64,000 nucleotides of DNA from the NCBI GenBank assembly GCA_036272195.1, contig DATAZE010000049.1:1-64000 (forward strand), written 5' to 3'. Source of the DNA: Verrucomicrobiia bacterium. Its GTDB lineage: Bacteria > Verrucomicrobiota > Verrucomicrobiia > Limisphaerales > DASXHY01. How positions within the stretch are numbered: the first letter of the stretch is position 1; every line of letters starts with the position of its first letter. The translations under genes and the position numbers were made by a program. Shown here piece by piece: positions 9,676 to 62,393 of the stretch. The notes under the pieces were generated by a model. It had not been told where the DNA came from. It was given only the letters and a program-made list of their open reading frames with translations, and did no database searches.

Positions 9676-10362
9676 ATGAGCCTCATTCGACTTCACAATA
9701 TTTCGCGCCGCTACCAAATGGGCACGGAAACAGTCCACGCGTTGCGCGAAGTTTCGCTGGAAATCCAGCGCGGCGAATACGTCGCCATCATGGGGCCGTC
9801 CGGCTCCGGCAAATCTACTTTGATGAATCTGCTCGGTTGCCTTGATACACCCACGGCTGGGCAATACGAACTCAACGGCATCCAGGTCAGCGAAATGGAT
9901 GACAACCGGCTCGCCGAAGTGCGGAACAAGGAAATCGGGTTTGTTTTTCAAACCTTCAACCTCCTGCCGCGTTCCGATGCATTGCGCAATGTGGAATTGC
10001 CGCTGATTTATTCCGGCATGCCCAGCGAAGAACGCCGCCGCATCGCGCTCGAAGCGCTGGCAAGCGTTGGTTTGGGCGATCGCATTCATCATCGGCCCAA
10101 CGAACTTTCCGGCGGCCAACGGCAGCGGGTGGCCGTGGCGCGCGCGCTGGTGAATCGGCCTTCGATTCTGCTCGCGGATGAACCGACCGGAAACCTCGAT
10201 TCAAAAACGGGCGAAGAAATGATGGCCTTGTTCGAGCAGCTTTGGAGCAAGGGAAACACAATCATCCTGGTCACTCACGAAGAGGACATCGCCCGGCATG
10301 CCAAGCGGGTCATTCGCATACGCGATGGATTGATTGCCAGCGATGAGCGGATGGATGGATAA
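9676..10362 (+). CDS. macB: ABC transporter ATP-binding protein (MacB/LolD family)
   Basis: Walker [10 protein letters not shown], signature [15 protein letters not shown], Walker [14 protein letters not shown]-loop. Confidence 0.9.
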
Positions 10363-10866
10363 ATGGATTGGTGGATTTTTGGATGAACGGTTGGGCGACA
10401 GCTCTCAAAACTGTTTGTTCTTATGGAGTATACAAAACGAAGGAATTTGAATCGAGGATATATGAAACTCGAAGCGTGGCAACGCGGTATGGATTTATTT
10501 GCCATGGCATATCGCATGTCTGGGCATGTTTCTGACTTCAAACTCAAATCGCAATCCAGGGACTCCGCTCAGTCAGTTTCTGCAAACATTGGGGAAGGCT
10601 ATGGCCGTCGTTCACTGCCCGAGTACCTGCAATTTCTCTACATCGCCAAAGGTTCACTTGCCGAAACGCTCACTCGCGCGATAGGGTTCCGTAGCGTCGA
10701 GACCCTGTCCAGCGACGACTTCGAAGAATTTGATAAGCTCCATTACGAAGTGGAAAATAAGCTTTTACGCCTCATCGAATCACTTGAATCCAAGCGCGAG
10801 AGGAATGACTGGCGCGACACATTGCCATCCAGCAATCCAAAAATCCAGCCATCCATTTATCCTTCC
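10353..10866. mobile_element. four-helix-bundle gene cassette bounded by ~38-bp imperfect inverted repeats (10353-10390 / 10829-10866)
   Basis: GGATGGATAAATGGATTGGTGGATTTTTGGATGAACGG vs reverse complement of right end GGAAGGATAAATGGATGGCTGGATTTTTGGATTGCTGG (~34/38). Left IR overlaps macB stop, right IR abuts ftsX start. Confidence 0.5.
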
Positions 10867-10872
10867 CGATGA
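10462..10872 (+). CDS. four helix bundle protein (TIGR02436 / 23S-rRNA intervening-sequence protein family)
   Basis: MKLEAWQRGMDL...ANIGEGYGRRS..EYLQFLYIAKGSLAE... is a strong family signature. GAGGA SD 6 nt upstream of ATG 10462. Confidence 0.85.
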   Translation: MKLEAWQRGMDLFAMAYRMSGHVSDFKLKSQSRDSAQSVSANIGEGYGRRSLPEYLQFLYIAKGSLAETLTRAIGFRSVETLSSDDFEEFDKLHYEVENKLLRLIESLESKRERNDWRDTLPSSNPKIQPSIYPSR

Positions 10873-12095
10873 ACTTCCTGACCGAGTTACGCGAAGGCCT
10901 GGCGATTTCCTGGAGCGCCATTCGCGCGAACCGGTTGCGCTCCGTGCTTGCCACCCTTGGCATCGTCATTGGGATTGTGACCGTCACACTGATGGGCACC
11001 GCTATCCAGGCGCTGAATCGCTCCTTCGAGAAAAGCATTTCGTTCATCGGCGGCGACGTCCTGTATGTGGATCGAGGCTCGTGGTTCATGCAATCCTACC
11101 AGGAATGGCGGGACTCGCAAAAGCGCCCGGCGCTCTCACTTTCGGAAGCGGATGGTTTGGCGGAACAACTCACACTTTCGAGCGCCGTGACTTCCGTGGC
11201 CTCCACCGATGAGCCGGTGAAATACAAAAAGCATAGCTCAGGAGGGGTTTCGATTGTTGGCACCACCGAGAATTTCATGTTCACCATGGGCTTTTCGATT
11301 GCTGAAGGCCGTTTTCTCTCCGGCCCGGAATGCGATTTCGGCCGACCCGTCTGTGTCATCGGAGCCACCGTGGCCACCAATTTGTTTCCGCACGAACCAC
11401 CGGTCGGGAACAAGGTGCTCATCGGCAATTTGCCGTTTCAAGTTGTGGGCGTGCTCGATAAACAGGGCGGGTTCGTCGATAAGAATGTCGATAACCAGGT
11501 GATGATTCCCATGCCTCAATATATTTCGCATTTCGACGATAGCCCCGACCTGCAAATTCAGGTGAAAGTGAAAGACATGGCGCAGGTGGATGAAGCCAAG
11601 GATGAATTGCGGCTGATCATGCGCCGCCTGCGTCGACTCGCGCCAAATGACCCGGACAATTTCGCCATCAATCAGCAGGACCAGATCCTCACCATGTTCC
11701 ACGCGGTCGCCGGGACTATTGGAGCCATCGGGCTTTTTGTCACCGGACTTTCGCTGTTCGTGGGCGGCATCGGCATCATGAATATCATGTTTGTGTCCGT
11801 GGCCGAACGAACGCGTGAAATCGGCATTCGCAAAGCCATCGGCGCGAAACGGCGAACAATCCTCCTCCAATTTTTAATTGAAGCCGCGAGCATTTGCCTT
11901 ATGGGCGGATTCATCGCATTGGCCATCGCGTGGCCGATGACGTTGTTGATGCAACGGATGATGCCGGCGGAGTTGTCGTTGAATGTGGCTGGTGTCGCGC
12001 TCGGCGTGGCGCTGGTGACGGGTGTGCTGGCGGGATTTTTTCCCGCGTGGCGGGCGGCAAGGATGAACCCGGTGGATGCACTTAGGAACGAATGA
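10869..12095 (+). CDS. ABC transporter permease, FtsX/MacB-like (4 TM + periplasmic domain)
   Basis: N-term LRSVLATLGIVIGIVTV, large periplasmic domain, C-terminal FtsX motif ERTREIGIRKAIGAKRRTI. Confidence 0.85.
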   Translation: MNFLTELREGLAISWSAIRANRLRSVLATLGIVIGIVTVTLMGTAIQALNRSFEKSISFIGGDVLYVDRGSWFMQSYQEWRDSQKRPALSLSEADGLAEQLTLSSAVTSVASTDEPVKYKKHSSGGVSIVGTTENFMFTMGFSIAEGRFLSGPECDFGRPVCVIGATVATNLFPHEPPVGNKVLIGNLPFQVVGVLDKQGGFVDKNVDNQVMIPMPQYISHFDDSPDLQIQVKVKDMAQVDEAKDELRLIMRRLRRLAPNDPDNFAINQQDQILTMFHAVAGTIGAIGLFVTGLSLFVGGIGIMNIMFVSVAERTREIGIRKAIGAKRRTILLQFLIEAASICLMGGFIALAIAWPMTLLMQRMMPAELSLNVAGVALGVALVTGVLAGFFPAWRAARMNPVDALRNE

Positions 12096-12103
12096 ACAAT
12101 CAT

Positions 12104-12653
12104 GGTGGGGCGAGACTCCGTCGAGCCCTATCTAATTATGAATCCGAACGATTCAAATATTGAAGTCGGCAGAAAAAATCCATCAACGGGCGTCCACGTT
12201 CATTTTGGAGAATCAACGATAGTGTTGTTGACTGTGACCACTGAAAACAGGATGCCTTGGCTGGCGAATCCGCTTGCCGACCGGCTTCTGCGAGAAACCT
12301 GGCAAGACGCGAGAGCGTGGCTGGTTGGCGACTACCTGTTAATGCCCGATCACCTTCATGCCTTTTGCGCACCCCAAGACTTTTCATTTTCAATTGAGCA
12401 ATGGATGACTTTTTGGAAGCGCGATTTTCGGCGACGACATGGCCGGGAGGATTGGCGCTTTCAATCTCGTGGCTGGCATCATCGCCTTCGCCATGGCGAA
12501 GACCACTCCACCAAGTGGCTTTACATTCAGGAAAATCCGGTTCGTAAAGGACTTGCGAACAGAATCGAGGATTGGCTGTACAAGGGATCAATTCATTACA
12601 TCAGATGGTAACTCGCAACAAAAGATCAGGGCTCGACGGAGTCTCGCCCCACC
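12104..12653. mobile_element. RAYT unit: REP-associated tyrosine transposase gene flanked by perfect 26-bp inverted repeats
   Basis: 12104-12129 GGTGGGGCGAGACTCCGTCGAGCCCT; 12628-12653 is its exact reverse complement. Each arm is itself an imperfect hairpin. Inserted between the two ftsX genes. Confidence 0.7.
12138..12611 (+). CDS. REP-associated tyrosine transposase (RAYT, IS200/IS605-like Y1 HUH transposase)
   Basis: HUH motif PDHLHAF, C-terminal catalytic Tyr region WLYIQENPVRKGL. Collinear with E. coli YafM/TnpA_REP (VLPEHMHCIW; YIYINPVKHGWV). Alternative start ATG 12102 overlapping the left IR. Confidence 0.8.
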   Translation: MNPNDSNIEVGRKNPSTGVHVHFGESTIVLLTVTTENRMPWLANPLADRLLRETWQDARAWLVGDYLLMPDHLHAFCAPQDFSFSIEQWMTFWKRDFRRRHGREDWRFQSRGWHHRLRHGEDHSTKWLYIQENPVRKGLANRIEDWLYKGSIHYIRW

Positions 12654-12697
12654 GTAGGGGGGCACTCCTTCTCGCCGAGCTAAACGAAAGCTTTCGC

Positions 12698-13906
12698 ATG
12701 GGCATGGGCGCTTTGGCGGCGCACAAGTTGCGTTCGGCGCTCACGCTGCTGGGCGTGCTCATCGGCGTGTTTTCCATCATCGTGGTGATGACCGCCATGC
12801 GCGTCTTGCAGCACAATGTCGAGGAGAACCTCAGCCAGATGGGCGCCCAGACTTTCATGGTCCGCAAGGCTCCAATGATTTTTTTCGACAGCCCGGACGG
12901 ATTTGAAAAATTCCGGCGGCGGAAAAATATCACCATGGCCCAGGTAAAACGGCTCGACGATAAAACAACCTTGCCGGCGAGCATCGGAATGGAAACGTCG
13001 TTTTGGGCGGGTGAAATGCAGACCCGCTACGGAAAAAGCGCCCCCGATGTGCCCGTCTTCGGCGAAACCCCCGGCAGTTTTCCCGCGCATAACTGGATCG
13101 TGCAGGACGGGCGCGCCTTATTGGAAATGGATGTGGACGGCATACGCGATGTTTGCGTGCTGGGCAACAAGCTTGCCGAAACTCTTTTCCCGCACAGCCC
13201 GGCGCTCGGCGAATGGTTAAAGATCGACGGCATCAATTATTTGATCATCGGCGTTCTTGAATCCCGCGGCGGCACGCTCGGCGGCAACCAGGATAATTTT
13301 GTCGTGATGCCCATCACCACCGGCTTGAACCGTTACGGACGCTATGGACGCAGCTTGAATGTGCTTGTGGAGGCGCGCGATGCGGCGAGTTACAACGCCA
13401 CGGAGGAGGAAGTGCGCGGCGCGTTGCGGGTCATCCGCAAGGTGCCGCCGGGAGAGGAGGACGACTTCGAGCTTTTTTCCAACGATTCGATGATCTCGCA
13501 GTTCAACGATTTCACGCGCGCAGTCCGCATCGGCGTGGCACTGGTCAGTTCGATCGCGCTGCTCGCCGCCGGGATCGGCATCATGAACATCATGCTCGTC
13601 TCCGTCACGGAGCGAACGCGCGAAATCGGCATCCGCCGCGCCGTGGGTGCGAAGAAGCGCAACATCATGGCACAATTCATCATGGAAGCGATCGTGTTGT
13701 GCGAGGTGGGCGGCGTGATCGGCGTGGGGTTGGGTATACTCGGAGGAAATGTCCTGGCACTGGTCTTGAAATTGCCGCCGGTGATCCCGGTGGATTGGGT
13801 GGTGCTGGGCCTGTTGATTTGCTCGGTGGTGGGAGTTGTGTTCGGGACTTATCCGGCGTTTAAAGCGGCGAATCTGGATCCGATTGAGTCATTGCGATAC
13901 GAATGA
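12698..13906 (+). CDS. ABC transporter permease, FtsX/MacB-like (second permease)
   Basis: KLRSALTLLGVLIGVFSII..., ERTREIGIRRAVGAKKRNI. The ORF-track start 12572 lies inside the RAYT gene. First ATG after the right IR is 12698; the native start may have been displaced by the insertion. Confidence 0.75.
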   Translation: MGMGALAAHKLRSALTLLGVLIGVFSIIVVMTAMRVLQHNVEENLSQMGAQTFMVRKAPMIFFDSPDGFEKFRRRKNITMAQVKRLDDKTTLPASIGMETSFWAGEMQTRYGKSAPDVPVFGETPGSFPAHNWIVQDGRALLEMDVDGIRDVCVLGNKLAETLFPHSPALGEWLKIDGINYLIIGVLESRGGTLGGNQDNFVVMPITTGLNRYGRYGRSLNVLVEARDAASYNATEEEVRGALRVIRKVPPGEEDDFELFSNDSMISQFNDFTRAVRIGVALVSSIALLAAGIGIMNIMLVSVTERTREIGIRRAVGAKKRNIMAQFIMEAIVLCEVGGVIGVGLGILGGNVLALVLKLPPVIPVDWVVLGLLICSVVGVVFGTYPAFKAANLDPIESLRYE

Positions 13907-13922
13907 ACGTTTTCCTGCGAAC

Positions 13923-13952
13923 GCTGACGTCCCGCCGGCGGGACGTCAGCGC
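13923..13952. terminator. perfect 30-bp palindrome (13-bp stem) between convergent genes, bidirectional terminator-like
   Basis: GCTGACGTCCCGCCGGCGGGACGTCAGC directly after ftsX2 stop (13906) and before the end of the minus-strand DUF1573 gene. Confidence 0.45.
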
Positions 13953-13980
13953 TCCCAGGATTGAAAGCCGTTCTCGGACG

Positions 13981-17274: not shown

Positions 17275-17340
17275 CAGAGCGCGGACTTCAGTCCGCGTGT
17301 CTCCATACAATTAATAACTCGCGGACTGAAGTCCGCGCTC
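17275..17340. terminator. 20-bp perfect inverted repeat (arms themselves palindromic) between convergent genes
   Basis: AGAGCGCGGACTTCAGTCCGCG ...23 nt... CGCGGACTGAAGTCCGCGCTC. Lies between the phosphoesterase stop (17272) and the SNF2 helicase stop (17353). Confidence 0.4.
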
Positions 17341-23344: not shown

Positions 23345-24241
23345 ATGGCAAATATTTTAGATACCATCGTTGAAGAAAAGAAACGCGAGGTCGCGCGGCT
23401 ACCGGAGCGCGTGCTGGCCGCGGGCGATTTACGCGATGCCATGCTGGAACACGGCGAACGGCGCGATTTCATGGCTGCGCTAAGATCACGTAGCAGCCGA
23501 GGTAACGAGGCTCAAATCAAACCGGAGCCTCCTAACGTCGGCGGCTACAATTCAATTGCGCTGATTGCGGAAGTGAAGAAGGCCTCCCCATCGGCGGGCA
23601 TTATTTGCAAAGATTTTGATCCCGTTAAGATTGCCAGGGAATACGAAGCGGCAGGCGCGAGTTGTTTGTCAGTGCTAACGGACGAAAAGTTTTTCCAAGG
23701 CTCGCTGGATTACCTGCGGCAAATTCGCGCAGCCGTGAAGCTGCCGCTGTTGCGCAAGGATTTCATCATCGACGAGCGGCAGATTCTGGAAGCCATCGAG
23801 TGGGGCGCGGATGCGATTTTGTTGATCGTGGCGATTCTCGACGACGAGCGCTTGAAACGCTTCCATTCACTGGCGAAAGGCGCTGGCTTGTCTGTGCTGG
23901 TGGAAGTGCACGACGAAGCTGAATTGGAACGCGCGCTGGCGATTGGCGCCGATCTCATTGGCGTGAACAATCGCGATTTGAAAACTTTCAAAGTGGATTT
24001 AGGAACGACGGAACGGCTGGCGGCTAAACTTTATAGTGGCACGGGCATCTTGCCCGTGCGATTGCAGAAAGAAACGCACGGGCAAGATGCCCGTGCCACT
24101 ATGCTCGTCGCCGAAAGCGGCATTCACACGCGAGCGGACGTCGAGCGGTTGACCAAATGCGGCGCGGCGGCAATTCTGGTTGGCGAATCGTTAATGAAGG
24201 GCGGGGATATTCGGGCGAAAGTGAAGGAATTGATTGCCTGA
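23345..24241 (+). CDS. trpC: indole-3-glycerol phosphate synthase, carrying an in-frame 22-aa insertion encoded by a palindromic repeat
   Basis: IGPS motifs (ALIAEVKKASPSAG, SVLTDEKFFQGS, LPLLRKDFIIDERQILEA, VLVEVHDE, IGVNNRDL, VAESGI). Start at MANILDTIVEEKK (23345); the upstream part of the track ORF is the hairpin region. Confidence 0.85.
   Translation: MANILDTIVEEKKREVARLPERVLAAGDLRDAMLEHGERRDFMAALRSRSSRGNEAQIKPEPPNVGGYNSIALIAEVKKASPSAGIICKDFDPVKIAREYEAAGASCLSVLTDEKFFQGSLDYLRQIRAAVKLPLLRKDFIIDERQILEAIEWGADAILLIVAILDDERLKRFHSLAKGAGLSVLVEVHDEAELERALAIGADLIGVNNRDLKTFKVDLGTTERLAAKLYSGTGILPVRLQKETHGQDARATMLVAESGIHTRADVERLTKCGAAAILVGESLMKGGDIRAKVKELIA
24035..24100. repeat. REP-like doublet: two inverted copies of a 26-bp palindromic unit (AGTGGCACGGGCATCTTGCCCGTGCG) with 14-nt spacer, inside the trpC reading frame
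   Basis: Copy 1 24035-24060, copy 2 (inverted) 24075-24100. 66 bp = 22 codons starting on a codon boundary (SGTGILPVRLQKETHGQDARAT), no stop. Third copy at 36676-36701. Confidence 0.7.
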
Positions 24242-27837: not shown

Positions 27838-28175
27838 GCCTTGTAGCAGCCTAAGTCGGCCTGCCTTCCTGCAGGCCGTCGCGGGGGACCCAAACCCGGA
27901 TTCCGCAATTGCGGAACGGGGCGGGGCGAACGGCGATGGCGAACCATCGTCGAGGTCACTTTCAGGACCTAGCCCGTCAGCTAACCTCGTCGGCATCTGG
28001 AAGGGCGATCCTCCAGGACCCGCGTGTGCGGGCACCCGCGGTCTCCCCACTCAAAACGCGTTGCGTGTTGTAGCGGCGGTCTATGCCCGTCGCCAAGATA
28101 TGCAGCGGCGCTCCCTGAGCGCCGGACTGACCTTGTAGAACTGCGGCGGTCATAGACCGCTGCTACACGAGCTAC
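27838..28175. repeat. cluster of GTAG...CTAC REP-like palindromic elements (BIME-like) upstream of flotillin gene; alternatively a structured ncRNA
   Basis: GTAG-headed palindromes: 27842 GTAGCAGCC + hairpin GGCCTGC-cttcct-GCAGGCC; 28068 GTAGCGGCGGTCTATG pairs with 28152 CATAGACCGCTGCTAC; 28136-28167 GTAGAACTGCGGCGGTCATAGACCGCTGCTAC; inner hairpin GGCGCTC-cct-GAGCGCC. Confidence 0.35.
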
Positions 28176-28201: not shown

Positions 28202-29998
28202 ATGACAAATGTATTCACGTTTTTGGCAAATCACTGGGTGCTTACCGGCGTGGCGTTCATCGTCTTGTTTGCAATGTTCGCGCAATTGTTTACTGGAGCG
28301 GCGCTCATCTCGGAACGGCAGGTCGGCATCGTCGTGAAGCGATTCGGCGGGCGCGGTTTGGAACCGGGCCGCTTGATTGCCCTTGCCGGCGAAGCGGGGT
28401 ATCAGGCCGATACGCTCGCGCCGGGACTGCATTTCGGGTTCTGGCGCTGGCAATATCGAATCATCAAAGGCTCGGTCACCGTCGTGCCCCAGGGTGAAAT
28501 CGCCCTGGTGCTCGCGGCAGATGGCGCCGCGATTCCCGCCGAGCGAATCCTGGGAAAAATCGTCGATTGCGACAATTTCCAGGACGCGCGGAAGTTCCTG
28601 GTGAACGGCGGCGAAAAGGGCCGTCAGCTCGGGATGCTGACTGGCGGCACGTATCGCATCAATTCCGCGTTGTTCACGGTCATCACGTCGCACACGGCGG
28701 AAAATCACGCCATGGCGCCGTTGCAACTGGAACTCACCCGTGTGAACACCGACATGGTGGGCATCGTGACGACACTGGACGGCCGGCCGATTGAGGCCGG
28801 GGAAATTGCCGGGCCGACCATTGCCGGTCACGACAACTTCCAGAATGCACAGGCATTCCTGGACGGCGGCGGCAGTCGCGGATTGCAGGAACAAGTCCTG
28901 TTGTCCGGCACGTGGAACCTGAATCCCTGGTTCGCCCAGGTGGAGCAGGTCCCGATGGTGCATATACCGATTGGCCACATTGGCGTCGTGATCTCGTTCG
29001 TTGGAAAGGCGCACGAGGACGTCAGCGGAGTCGAGTTCAAACATGGCGACCTGGTCATGGTCGGTCACAAAGGTGTGTGGGTGACGCCGCTTTATCCCGG
29101 CAAACACCCGCTCAACACCCGCGTGATGAAAGTTGAATTGGTCCCGACCACGAACATCGTATTGAACTGGGCCACGCGCACCGAGGCGCATCATTACGAC
29201 GAGAAGCTTTCGTCGATAACCGTGCGCTCGAAGGACGGGTTCGCGTTCAATCTCGACGTGTCGCAGATCATCCACGTCGGCGCGCTCGACGCGCCGAAGG
29301 TCATCTCGCGCGTCGGATCGATGCAGAACCTGGTCGATCACGTGTTGCAGCCGATTGTCGGAAATTACTTCCGCAACTCGGCGCAGGATTACACGGTGCT
29401 CGACTTCCTGAGCGCGCGCAGCCATCGCCAGACGGAAGCGGCGGAACATATCCGCACGGCCATCGGCGCTTATGACGTGCAGGCGATCGACACGCTGATT
29501 GGCGATATCAATCCACCGGCCCAGTTGATGCAGACGCAGACGGACCGGAAGATCGCCGAAGAGCAGAAGAAGACCTACGAAGTGCAGGAAGCCGCGCAGA
29601 AGCAGCGCCAACAATTGGTGCGACAGACTTCGCTCGCGGACATCCAGCAACAGGTCGTCGGCGCGGAACAGGGCGTGAGCATCGCGGAATTGCACGCGAA
29701 CGCCAACGTCAAGCAGGCGGCCGGTGAAGCCGAATCGACGCGGTTGCGCGCCATCGGCGAAGCGGAAGCGATTCGCGCAACCGGCCAGGCGAAGGCCGAA
29801 GCTTATCGCGCGGGCGTGGAATCGCTCGGCACACAGGGCTACACGGTGATGCAGTTGATGCAAATCGTGGGCGACCGCAACGTGCGAATTGTGCCGGACG
29901 TCGCGGTAAGCGGCGCCACGGCAAACCCGGGCCTGGTGGATGGATTACTCGGCGTGATGCTGCGCAATCAAAATACCGGCCCAACTCAGAAAAACTGA
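28202..29998 (+). CDS. flotillin/SPFH (band-7) family protein (YqiK-like)
   Basis: N-terminal TM, SPFH domain, long C-terminal coiled-coil/EA-rich region (EQKKTYEVQEAAQKQRQQL...). Confidence 0.8.
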   Translation: MTNVFTFLANHWVLTGVAFIVLFAMFAQLFTGAALISERQVGIVVKRFGGRGLEPGRLIALAGEAGYQADTLAPGLHFGFWRWQYRIIKGSVTVVPQGEIALVLAADGAAIPAERILGKIVDCDNFQDARKFLVNGGEKGRQLGMLTGGTYRINSALFTVITSHTAENHAMAPLQLELTRVNTDMVGIVTTLDGRPIEAGEIAGPTIAGHDNFQNAQAFLDGGGSRGLQEQVLLSGTWNLNPWFAQVEQVPMVHIPIGHIGVVISFVGKAHEDVSGVEFKHGDLVMVGHKGVWVTPLYPGKHPLNTRVMKVELVPTTNIVLNWATRTEAHHYDEKLSSITVRSKDGFAFNLDVSQIIHVGALDAPKVISRVGSMQNLVDHVLQPIVGNYFRNSAQDYTVLDFLSARSHRQTEAAEHIRTAIGAYDVQAIDTLIGDINPPAQLMQTQTDRKIAEEQKKTYEVQEAAQKQRQQLVRQTSLADIQQQVVGAEQGVSIAELHANANVKQAAGEAESTRLRAIGEAEAIRATGQAKAEAYRAGVESLGTQGYTVMQLMQIVGDRNVRIVPDVAVSGATANPGLVDGLLGVMLRNQNTGPTQKN

Positions 29999-30530: not shown

Positions 30531-30603
30531 GTAGCAGCCGACGTCAGGAGGCTCCAATCAGATTTTCCAAAAAAGGAATGAGCCTCCTGATGTCGGCTGC
30601 TAC
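30531..30603. terminator. 24-bp inverted repeat with 25-nt loop, GTAG...CTAC REP-like, between convergent genes
   Basis: GTAGCAGCCGACGTCAGGAGGCTC ... GAGCCTCCTGATGTCGGCTGCTAC (23/24). Right arm overlaps the stop of the minus-strand DUF2007 gene. Confidence 0.5.
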
Positions 30604-40929: not shown

Positions 40930-41006
40930 TGGTGCGCGAGGAGAGGGTCGAACTCTCAACCTTCGGCTTCGGAGGCCGACGCTCTATCCAATTGAGCTAC
41001 TCGCGC
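40930..41006 (-). tRNA. tRNA-Arg (anticodon CCG), CCA encoded
   Basis: Minus-strand cloverleaf: acceptor GCGCGAG/CTCGCGC, D-arm GCTC-AATTGGATA-GAGC, anticodon stem TCGGC/GCCGA with loop CTCCGAA (CCG), T-arm GAGAG-TTCGACC-CTCTC, discriminator A. Confidence 0.85.
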
Positions 41007-41044: not shown

Positions 41045-41381
41045 TCTGTTTTCCACTGAATCCCATAATCCGGGCGCATATCAAAATTTGAATGGTATTT
41101 CAGCCACGGAGTGGCGGTAGATGGTAGCCCATGGCGCGAGCCGTGGGAACCGAACGTGGAAATTGTTAAGCCCCGGATGGGGCGAAAGAAAAATGCCGTG
41201 CCGCGTTCTTTCGCTGCTCCGCAGCTAGTTCCTCGATTTTTTGCGATATGCAATTTTTGATATGCGCCCCCGTAACCCCGCAGTTCGAATGGGCACGGCG
41301 CAGCGCAATTGGAACTTGGAATTTGGAACTTTATTTGACAGCCATGCTATAATAGCCGCAGAAGGAGGACAGAAAGGGCAA

Positions 41382-62280: not shown

Positions 62281-62284
62281 GGTT

Positions 62285-62393
62285 GGTCAAATCAGTTAAA
62301 TAAGTTAAATGGGTTAAATTAGTGAATGAGCAGCGAATCGCAGAGTCCCCACCCATTGAACCGATTTAACTTATTTAATTCGTTTAACTGACC
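62285..62393. repeat. AT-rich ~40-bp imperfect inverted repeat pair between emrB and lutA (core TTAAATAAGTTAAAT)
   Basis: GGTCAAATCAGTTAAATAAGTTAAATGGGTTAAATTAGTG ... CCCATTGAACCGATTTAACTTATTTAATTCGTTTAACTGACC. Strongly AT-rich in a 60% GC context. Confidence 0.5.

Follow-up and report, generated by a model that had tools for sequence, protein, structure and literature searches.

An operon-embedded RAYT gene with inverted flanking REPs in a Verrucomicrobiia bacterium and its probable coupling to the permease gene downstream

REP-associated tyrosine transposases (RAYTs) and the repetitive extragenic palindromes (REPs) that go with them are well described in Proteobacteria, and the questions that occupy the field are why single-copy RAYTs persist and whether a REPtron, the RAYT gene together with its inverted flanking REPs, ever moves as a unit. 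Here we analyse a 550-bp cassette in a stretch of 64,000 nucleotides (hereafter the window; contig DATAZE010000049.1, positions 1 to 64,000 of the forward strand, assembly GCA_036272195.1) from a Verrucomicrobiia bacterium, and consider it likely that the region is a REPtron, consisting of a single-copy RAYT with one cognate REP on each side, which entered an operon once, long ago, and is now coupled to the gene downstream, permease 2. A REP has been defined as a GC-rich hairpin, often imperfect, with a GT[AG]G tetranucleotide 0-2 nt to its 5' side (PMC6006769), and the residue roles in E. coli TnpA_REP referred to below are taken from the same work. The RAYT-REPIN systems of Pseudomonas have been described by Bertels & Rainey (PMC3116915, PMC5581495), and GTAG REPs were known before in Verrucomicrobia, from Opitutus terrae (PMC3733652). 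GTGG-tagged REPs and REPs lying in frame inside genes are likewise already known, the in-frame insertions having been reported in subclass 2.4 tnpA_REP genes and in other genes (PMC6006769).

The features of the cassette are listed here by position in the window.

12104..12129, + strand: left REP, with the GTGG guide tetranucleotide at 12105-12108 and the hairpin GGGC-GA-GAC-TCC-GTC-GA-GCCC at 12108-12128.
12138..12611, + strand: RAYT (TnpA_REP-like) gene, 157 amino acids (aa) plus TAA.
12351-12359, + strand: RAYT HUH, H72-L73-H74, in the motif PDHLHAF.
12522-12524, + strand: RAYT putative catalytic tyrosine Y129, with N133 at 12534-12536, in the motif WLYIQENP (YxxxN).
12605..12607, + strand: ATG overlapping the RAYT stop (ATGGTAA), the proposed present-day start of permease 2.
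12628..12653, - strand: right REP, the exact reverse complement of the left REP and a covariance-model match.

The 26-mer GGTGGGGCGAGACTCCGTCGAGCCCT at 12104-12129 and its exact reverse complement at 12628-12653 enclose a single open reading frame (ORF) on the + strand that carries PDHLHAF and WLYIQENP, so that both the perfect inverted repeats and the HUH and C-terminal tyrosine motifs (H72/H74, Y129) described in the earlier note on this DNA are present. No further copy of the 26-mer was found in the window with up to 3 mismatches allowed, none being expected from shuffles. That the arms are pieces of a longer, unrelated duplication, which the earlier note would have counted against its claim, was rejected, as the repeat is exactly 26 nt and the outer bases differ on both sides. 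The RAYT gene most likely starts at ATG 12138 and not at ATG 12102, in or beside the left arm, where the list of open reading frames placed it: the 441 homologues are mostly of 157 aa and begin at the equivalent ATG, and in 5 of 6 syntenic loci the frame of ATG 12102 runs into a stop codon after the left REP.

Judged from sequence and model, the encoded protein is a distant RAYT-like HUH-Y1 enzyme. It matches the NCBIfam model NF047646 (REP_Tyr_transpos, REP-associated tyrosine transposase) end to end over the full model (E=2.1e-18), and its only significant sequence match in the PDB is E. coli TnpA_REP, 4er8 (E=1.3e-5, ~23% identity), in whose alignment H59/H61, Q95, H101, R104, Y115 and N119 face identical residues in the window RAYT, with W94 replaced by Phe and E100 by His. 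An AlphaFold model, for which 28 homologues served as input, again found 4er8_A as its top match with Foldseek (E=8.5e-6, TM score 0.56), followed by the TnpA proteins of IS608 and ISDra2 at E of about 1e-3. HUH, Tyr and Asn are invariant across the 28 aligned homologues, as is FQSRGWHHRLR (residues 108-118), the counterpart of the E. coli GTAG-recognition segment W94-R104, in the family alignment. The invariant His at the position of E. coli E100 coincides in this family with the GTGG tag, a correlation only. Source annotations call the homologues 'hypothetical protein' or 'putative transposase', with a single case of 'REP-associated tyrosine transposase'. The gene is a domesticated-type transposase and appears to belong to a previously uncharacterised clade restricted to Verrucomicrobia (Limisphaerales and relatives). 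The identification as a RAYT made in the earlier note is thus borne out by NF047646 and by 4er8 as the best match in both sequence and fold.

A genome scan with two peptide patterns, which divergent paralogues could escape, returned 57 RAYT loci in 56 assemblies, almost all of them from Verrucomicrobia (Limisphaerales, 'subdivision 3'), and together with the window these made up the 58 loci surveyed for REPs. Repeats headed GGTGGGGCGAG occur within 400 nt of the RAYT in 56 of the 58 loci (210 copies in total), and they frequently form inverted doublets to the left and right of the gene. The family consensus is GTGG + GGC-GA-NNN-loop(3-4)-NNN-GA-GCC, where the outer stem varies among GGC/GCC, GGT/ACC, GCC/GGC and CGC/GCG and the inner stem among GAC/GTC, GCG/CGC, GAG/CTC, GTG/CAC and GGC/GCC, and the tandem G.A/A.G mismatch is constant. 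REPs with loops of 3 nt and of 4 nt were distinguished, and the latter class was aligned separately for the pair counts and the covariance model. Across its 42 distinct variants, 94.4% of the hairpin cells are paired as against 80.7% in shuffles and 24-46% in slid-register controls, and two-sided compensatory changes occur in all six hairpin pairs, a score reached by none of 500 shuffles. The predicted single-stranded DNA fold of the arm, ((((..(((...)))..)))), is the same hairpin as that given by covariation. REP types track RAYT clades, the GCG/CGC type being found in the 'WSGK' clade. In the window arms the GTGG tag abuts the stem directly, in agreement with the published definition; by sequence, then, the arms are canonical REPs in inverted orientation around a RAYT, that is, a REPtron, and the RAYT-plus-flanking-REP layout proposed in the earlier note extends to 56 of the 58 loci.

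REPs of this family are also dispersed without the gene. At least 120 metagenome contigs contain the exact 25-mer of the REP, and of the 120 listed just 4 also carry a RAYT; among these listed matches are 60 convergent doublets, with a modal overall size of 72-75 nt, and 99 singlets. This dispersal as doublets and singlets is the REP/REPIN pattern. REP copies also lie kilobases away from the RAYT in genome loci L004, L007, L043 and L052. In the window the covariance model finds the two arms only (31.5 bits each; next best 11.9). There is one RAYT in the window, and the gene is present as a single copy in 55 of the 56 assemblies. It thus reads as a single-copy gene of long persistence, the clade of RAYTs found at this operon junction spanning hosts whose permease 1 is only 53% identical.

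The operon in which the cassette lies has the order TPR (tetratricopeptide repeat) protein, HlyD-like adaptor, ABC ATPase, [IVP ORF], permease 1, [RAYT], permease 2. The two permease genes that enclose the cassette are the following.

10869..12095, + strand: permease 1 (MacB_PCD + FtsX), assigned by Pfam and by synteny with loci L179, L181 and L182; 8 nt separate its TGA stop from the left REP.
12605..13906, + strand: permease 2 (MacB_PCD + FtsX), assigned by Pfam, with a predicted REP-encoded N-terminal extension; a 433-aa ORF running through the right REP.

A RAYT occupies the same permease 1/permease 2 junction in nine other loci (L002, L003, L004, L007, L052, L112, L147, L182 and L183). 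Identity to the window across these loci is 53-89% for permease 1 (the 89% of L183 covers 74 aa only; full-length values do not exceed 80%), 60-96% for permease 2 (no value for L112, where permease 2 is off the contig) and 69-87% for the RAYT (87% in L183, 69-78% in the others). In L183 the flanking permease fragments are 89% and 96% identical to the window, yet the RAYT is only 87% identical. Family members occupy many other genomic contexts as well. A neighbour-joining tree of 51 of them, without support values, places all ten junction RAYTs in one clade. As all ten belong to one clade, the cassette appears to be old and of single origin, not the product of a recent jump.

Several junctions lack the cassette. 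In L179 and L180, whose permease 2 is 94-95% identical to that of the window, the junction is empty and consists of a 29-nt spacer; both loci are colinear with the window over 5.7-17.3 kb and have neither the RAYT nor the IVP ORF. Relative to L179, window positions 12096-12667 replace 53 nt, namely the 29-nt spacer and the eight first codons of permease 2. L184 and L185, sisters of occupied alleles, have a native 4-nt ATGA overlap at the permease junction. The search for an empty site proposed in the earlier note has therefore succeeded in four loci, and its view of a unit inserted between two operon genes holds as regards the site and fails as regards a clean insertion, the spacer and the first 8 permease 2 codons having been replaced. 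Within the 29-nt spacer of L179 lies a palindrome, GAAACGTTTC, that may represent either a target or a footprint.

It is here that the cassette has to be weighed as an autonomous, recently active insertion sequence (IS) of the IS200/IS605 type that jumped into the operon whole. The unit is present or absent as a block versus close relatives, occupied alleles turn up at scattered places in the permease 2 tree, and family members are found in many other contexts, all of which such an element would explain; moreover, at the point where the right REP ends, the native permease 2 sequence TTC-CAC-CGG includes CCACC, the complement of the REP head, and this could mark a target site, although we take the reading of CCACC as a GTGG target site as only a hint from sequence. 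The earlier note had likewise argued for recent mobility from the 100% identical ends. However, 22-26 nt of the REP, including a 22-nt core of the window arm, are unchanged between species with RAYTs of only 60-74% identity, and with the REP so conserved while the RAYTs diverge, the perfect match of the arms is no measure of the age of the insertion. Among the other RAYTs at this junction even the nearest has just 87% identity, the rest having 69-78%, and the junction RAYTs, in nine other loci besides the window, form one clade with the same fusion architecture, which argues for one old event and against recent mobility. The window contains a single copy, as do 55 of 56 assemblies; the unit ends in inverted REPs and not in the same-strand subterminal hairpins of IS200/IS605; no tnpB is present; and 116 of 120 listed REP-bearing contigs are without a RAYT. 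With a single copy, inverted ends and no PF01797 match the unit does not group with IS200/IS605, and we regard a recently active element of that type as very improbable. For a REPtron of single origin, the patchy distribution would reflect either lateral spread of the occupied allele by homologous recombination in the conserved flanks or repeated replacement by empty alleles.

The junction loci point to a coupling between the REPtron and permease 2. The RAYT 3' end reads xxA-TGG-TAA in all ten junction loci, and the codons before the terminal Trp (AGA, CGA, ACA, GCA, ATA, CAA) specify different amino acids but all end in A, which places an ATG four bases before the stop. This overlapping ATG is found in 10/10 junction loci as against 2/11 Trp-ending family members elsewhere (Fisher p=2e-4), and its frame is open through the right REP into full-length permease 2 in 8/10 junction loci. 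Of the exceptions, L003 keeps a native ATG after the REP, and in L004 a 21-24-nt duplicate of the permease 1 end restores an overlapped start. The direct duplication in L004, GACGCTTTGAGAAATGAGTAA from the permease 1 3' end, stands at 9915-9940 and 10497-10520, on either side of the REPtron. On the + strand the right REP reads SGLDGVSPH within the N-terminal extension of permease 2, the predicted REP-encoded peptide being MVTRNKRSGLDGVSPHR, and five independently predicted permeases of 434 aa start with MVTRxKKSGLDGVSPH. Extension lengths differ between permeases by whole codons.

Public annotations start permease 2 at an internal Met, at 12698 or 12704 (NCBI, 400 aa; JGI, 402 aa). The segment LLAELNESFR, upstream of the internal Met, is common to the window permease 2 and to native N-termini, and upstream of it there is no ATG, GTG or TTG except ATG 12605 and TTG 12572. 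The annotated starts would lose this conserved segment, which suggests a start-codon misannotation caused by the REP; the public annotations thus probably truncate the N-terminus, and translation of permease 2 probably starts at ATG 12605, the right REP being coding. No promoter-like or terminator-like sites were found at either REP, which fits co-transcription with the operon, and the cassette is presumably co-transcribed with the exporter genes.

Taken together, the following sequence of events is proposed. By analogy with E. coli TnpA_REP, the RAYT would bind the REP hairpin in single-stranded DNA and read the 5' GTGG tag, and Y129 would cleave and rejoin DNA with a metal bound by H72/H74; this activity would maintain and disperse REP singlets and inverted, REPIN-like doublets of about 73 nt in the genome. 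The cassette would have entered the stop/start overlap of the two permease genes in a MacB-type exporter operon once, long ago, carrying no promoter or terminator of its own and relying for transcription on the operon. On entry the native start and first codons of permease 2 would have been lost, and the ATG overlapping the RAYT stop would now initiate permease 2 through the right REP, adding about 13 cytoplasmic N-terminal residues. Observed here are the repeat, the fold and motifs, the structure and dispersal of the REPs, the synteny, the empty sites, the single RAYT clade, and the conservation of the ATG and its frame.

The arms might instead act mainly in RNA, forming a stem of ~30 bp like that of a 23S rRNA intervening sequence, from which RNase III would excise or regulate the ORF, the likeness to RAYTs being secondary. 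The predicted mRNA fold does pair the arms across 498 nt (minimum free energy -244 kcal/mol, z=-6.1), and the same operon has, next to the cassette, a second ORF in the same inverted repeat-ORF-inverted repeat layout, as follows.

10423-10872: 23S_rRNA_IVP ORF (PF05635, four-helix bundle), between the ABC ATPase and permease 1.

IVP ORFs moreover stand in for the RAYT at the permease junction in L181 (permease 2 92-93% identical) and in L186, a sister of an occupied allele; they encode 179-183 aa (L181, 5405-6004; L186, 2388-3000) and are flanked by inverted GTGAAACG / CGTTTCAC repeats. Covariation, however, lies within each arm and not between the arms, and the REP occurs mostly without an enclosed ORF, as singlets or 73-nt doublets among the listed metagenome matches. 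The arms differ from each other in several loci, with only 15-16 nt of exact complementarity in L004 and L052; cleavage of the stem would part ATG 12605 from the body of permease 2; and the catalytic residues are invariant across the family. That the arms act mainly in RNA therefore seems highly unlikely, and arm-arm pairing (~30 bp, in RNA or single-stranded DNA) is possibly a regulatory side effect predicted by folding and not the primary function.

The IVP cassette of the window is bracketed by a 32-nt, 91% inverted repeat that is GGAT-rich (10353-10384 / 10835-10866). The place it occupies is precisely the one where the genes for the ABC ATPase and permease 1 natively overlap by ATGA; the last ATPase codons are rewritten, and the TGA of its ORF overlaps the permease 1 ATG (10869). 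An IVP ORF at this ATPase/permease 1 spot is present in L007 and absent in L179, L181 and L185. It could be imagined that operon stop/start overlaps are landing pads for inverted repeat-ORF-inverted repeat cassettes with one of two unrelated cargoes, RAYT or IVP, each with its own repeats and re-creating the overlap, with the RAYT becoming entrenched by providing permease 2 with its start codon and N-terminal residues, and with the scattered distribution arising as alleles are exchanged by homologous recombination between related species; we put this forward tentatively, as a scheme that we think possible but doubtful. If true, the host could not delete the RAYT without losing permease 2, and entrenchment would be a concrete mechanism for the long-debated persistence of single-copy RAYTs.

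A number of observations weigh against the REPtron interpretation as set out above. A Pfam scan of the RAYT ORF gave no match at E<=10; since PF01797 (Y1_Tnp) is among the families missed, the check named in the earlier note formally speaks against a transposase, a result which we regard as overridden by the more specific evidence and which is in keeping with the poor coverage of TnpA_REP by this family (PMC6006769). The NF047646 score of 66.6 bits is below the curated cut-off of 80, and the AlphaFold model is of moderate confidence (pLDDT 70.5). A single REP does not surpass shuffled sequence in predicted free energy (-4.7 kcal/mol), and because folding energy is not exceptional the structural claim rests on covariation. 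The annotated internal starts of permease 2 likewise disagree with a start at ATG 12605. RAYT and permease divergence show no significant correlation (Mantel r=0.10 and 0.18, compared with r=0.87 between the two permeases), and since co-divergence is not significant the claim of a single origin relies on clade membership, in trees (RAYT and permease 2) that are both neighbour-joining without support values. In the permease 2 tree each occupied allele lies beside an unoccupied one, so simple vertical descent fails. Finally, no REP of the family was found by the covariance model in 44 kb of related loci without the cassette, nor in the window beyond the two arms, the window being ~1.4% of a genome of roughly 4-5 Mb.

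This scarcity of REPs would suit a stranded relic, in which the RAYT persists only since its deletion would remove the permease 2 start and no REP population is served here: no other family REP is seen in the window or in the 44 kb of related loci, and deletion would be costly with the native permease 2 start lost. The ORF is intact, however, with all catalytic residues and 69-87% identity within the junction clade, which indicates that the protein itself is under purifying selection; the REPs on either side are perfect; and the part inspected is only about 1.4% of the genome. We thus consider a relic rather unlikely, and retain a REPtron coupled to permease 2 as the preferred explanation.

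Other repeats in the window are distinct from these REPs. The earlier note had suggested that GTAG-headed palindromes at 27.8-28.2 kb and 30.5 kb could be substrates of the RAYT; they lack the GTGG-GGC-GA hairpin signature, the REP covariance model finds nothing there, and the suggestion was dropped. The GTAG head motif is over-represented in the window (14 matches vs 4.5 expected), and inverted GTAG doublets at 23490-23548, 28070-28166 and 30531-30603 start with GTAGC[AG]GC[CG]G and end with GCTGCTAC ('double-foot' GTAG...CTAC). From their sequence these GTAG...CTAC palindromes form a second, separate REP-like family, for which another RAYT, encoded outside the window, is presumably responsible. 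Part of the palindromes at 27.8-28.2 kb is explained by a c-di-AMP riboswitch (ydaO/yuaA type, 51.2 bits) at 27838-28010, upstream of an ORF starting at 28202. An Acido-Lenti-1 small RNA motif (39 bits, barely over the gathering score) adjoins a tRNA-Arg(CCG), the positions being 41102-41147 (-) and 40930-41006 (-). Further long, near-perfect hairpins unrelated in sequence to the REP lie at 13913-13960, 17277-17340, 24033-24102 and 62281-62393, among them, at 24.0 kb, a stem of 31 nt (97%) and, directly following the stop of permease 2, a 24+24-nt palindrome.

With regard to the questions raised at the outset, what is new here is a Verrucomicrobia-specific RAYT clade, the strict conservation between species of a REP with a tandem G.A loop, and a REPtron that is embedded in an operon and, as we infer, translationally coupled. 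New as well is the natural allele series at one operon junction, where the site is occupied by the cassette, empty or filled by another ORF. If permease 2 starts at 12605 as proposed, the locus also offers evidence of a host gene that depends on the cassette for its start codon. The definition of a RAYT is unchanged by it.

Among known systems, the E. coli TnpA_REP (4er8) REPtron is likewise a single-copy HUH-Y1 gene with inverted flanking REPs, the equivalents of HUH, Y115 and N119 are conserved together with Q95, H101 and R104 of the tag-recognition segment, and in both cases the REP combines a GC-rich imperfect hairpin with a GT[AG]G tag at its foot. In contrast to the E. coli protein, the window RAYT is ~23% identical, pairs with the tag GTGG and not GTAG, and has E100 replaced by an invariant His, and the short hairpin of its REP, of 3+3 or 4+3 bp, has a tandem G.A/A.G as conserved internal loop. 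While the E. coli REP cluster is intergenic, the window RAYT lies inside an operon and would be coupled translationally to the next gene.

As in the Pseudomonas RAYT-REPIN systems, there is one RAYT per REP family, the REPs, in metagenomes, are largely inverted doublets (REPINs) dispersed without the gene, and persistence is long and housekeeping-like rather than IS-like. The window system differs in belonging to another phylum and RAYT clade, in doublets of about 73 nt, in the few REPs of the sampled 64 kb, and in a cassette that is patchily present and absent at one locus. With the IS200/IS605 TnpA proteins (IS608, ISDra2) it shares the HUH-Y1 fold and, presumably, recognition of a single-stranded DNA hairpin with a tetranucleotide guide. 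Those elements, however, are multicopy and often include tnpB, their subterminal hairpins are not inverted, and insertion takes place 3' of a fixed tetranucleotide; PF01797, which was built on IS200/IS605 TnpA, misses the window RAYT. Finally, the in-frame REP insertions (PMC6006769) resemble the right REP in that a REP is tolerated in coding sequence with the frame intact. Unlike them, the window REP would not be a later loop insertion but part of a new N-terminal extension, made as the whole REPtron displaced the native start.

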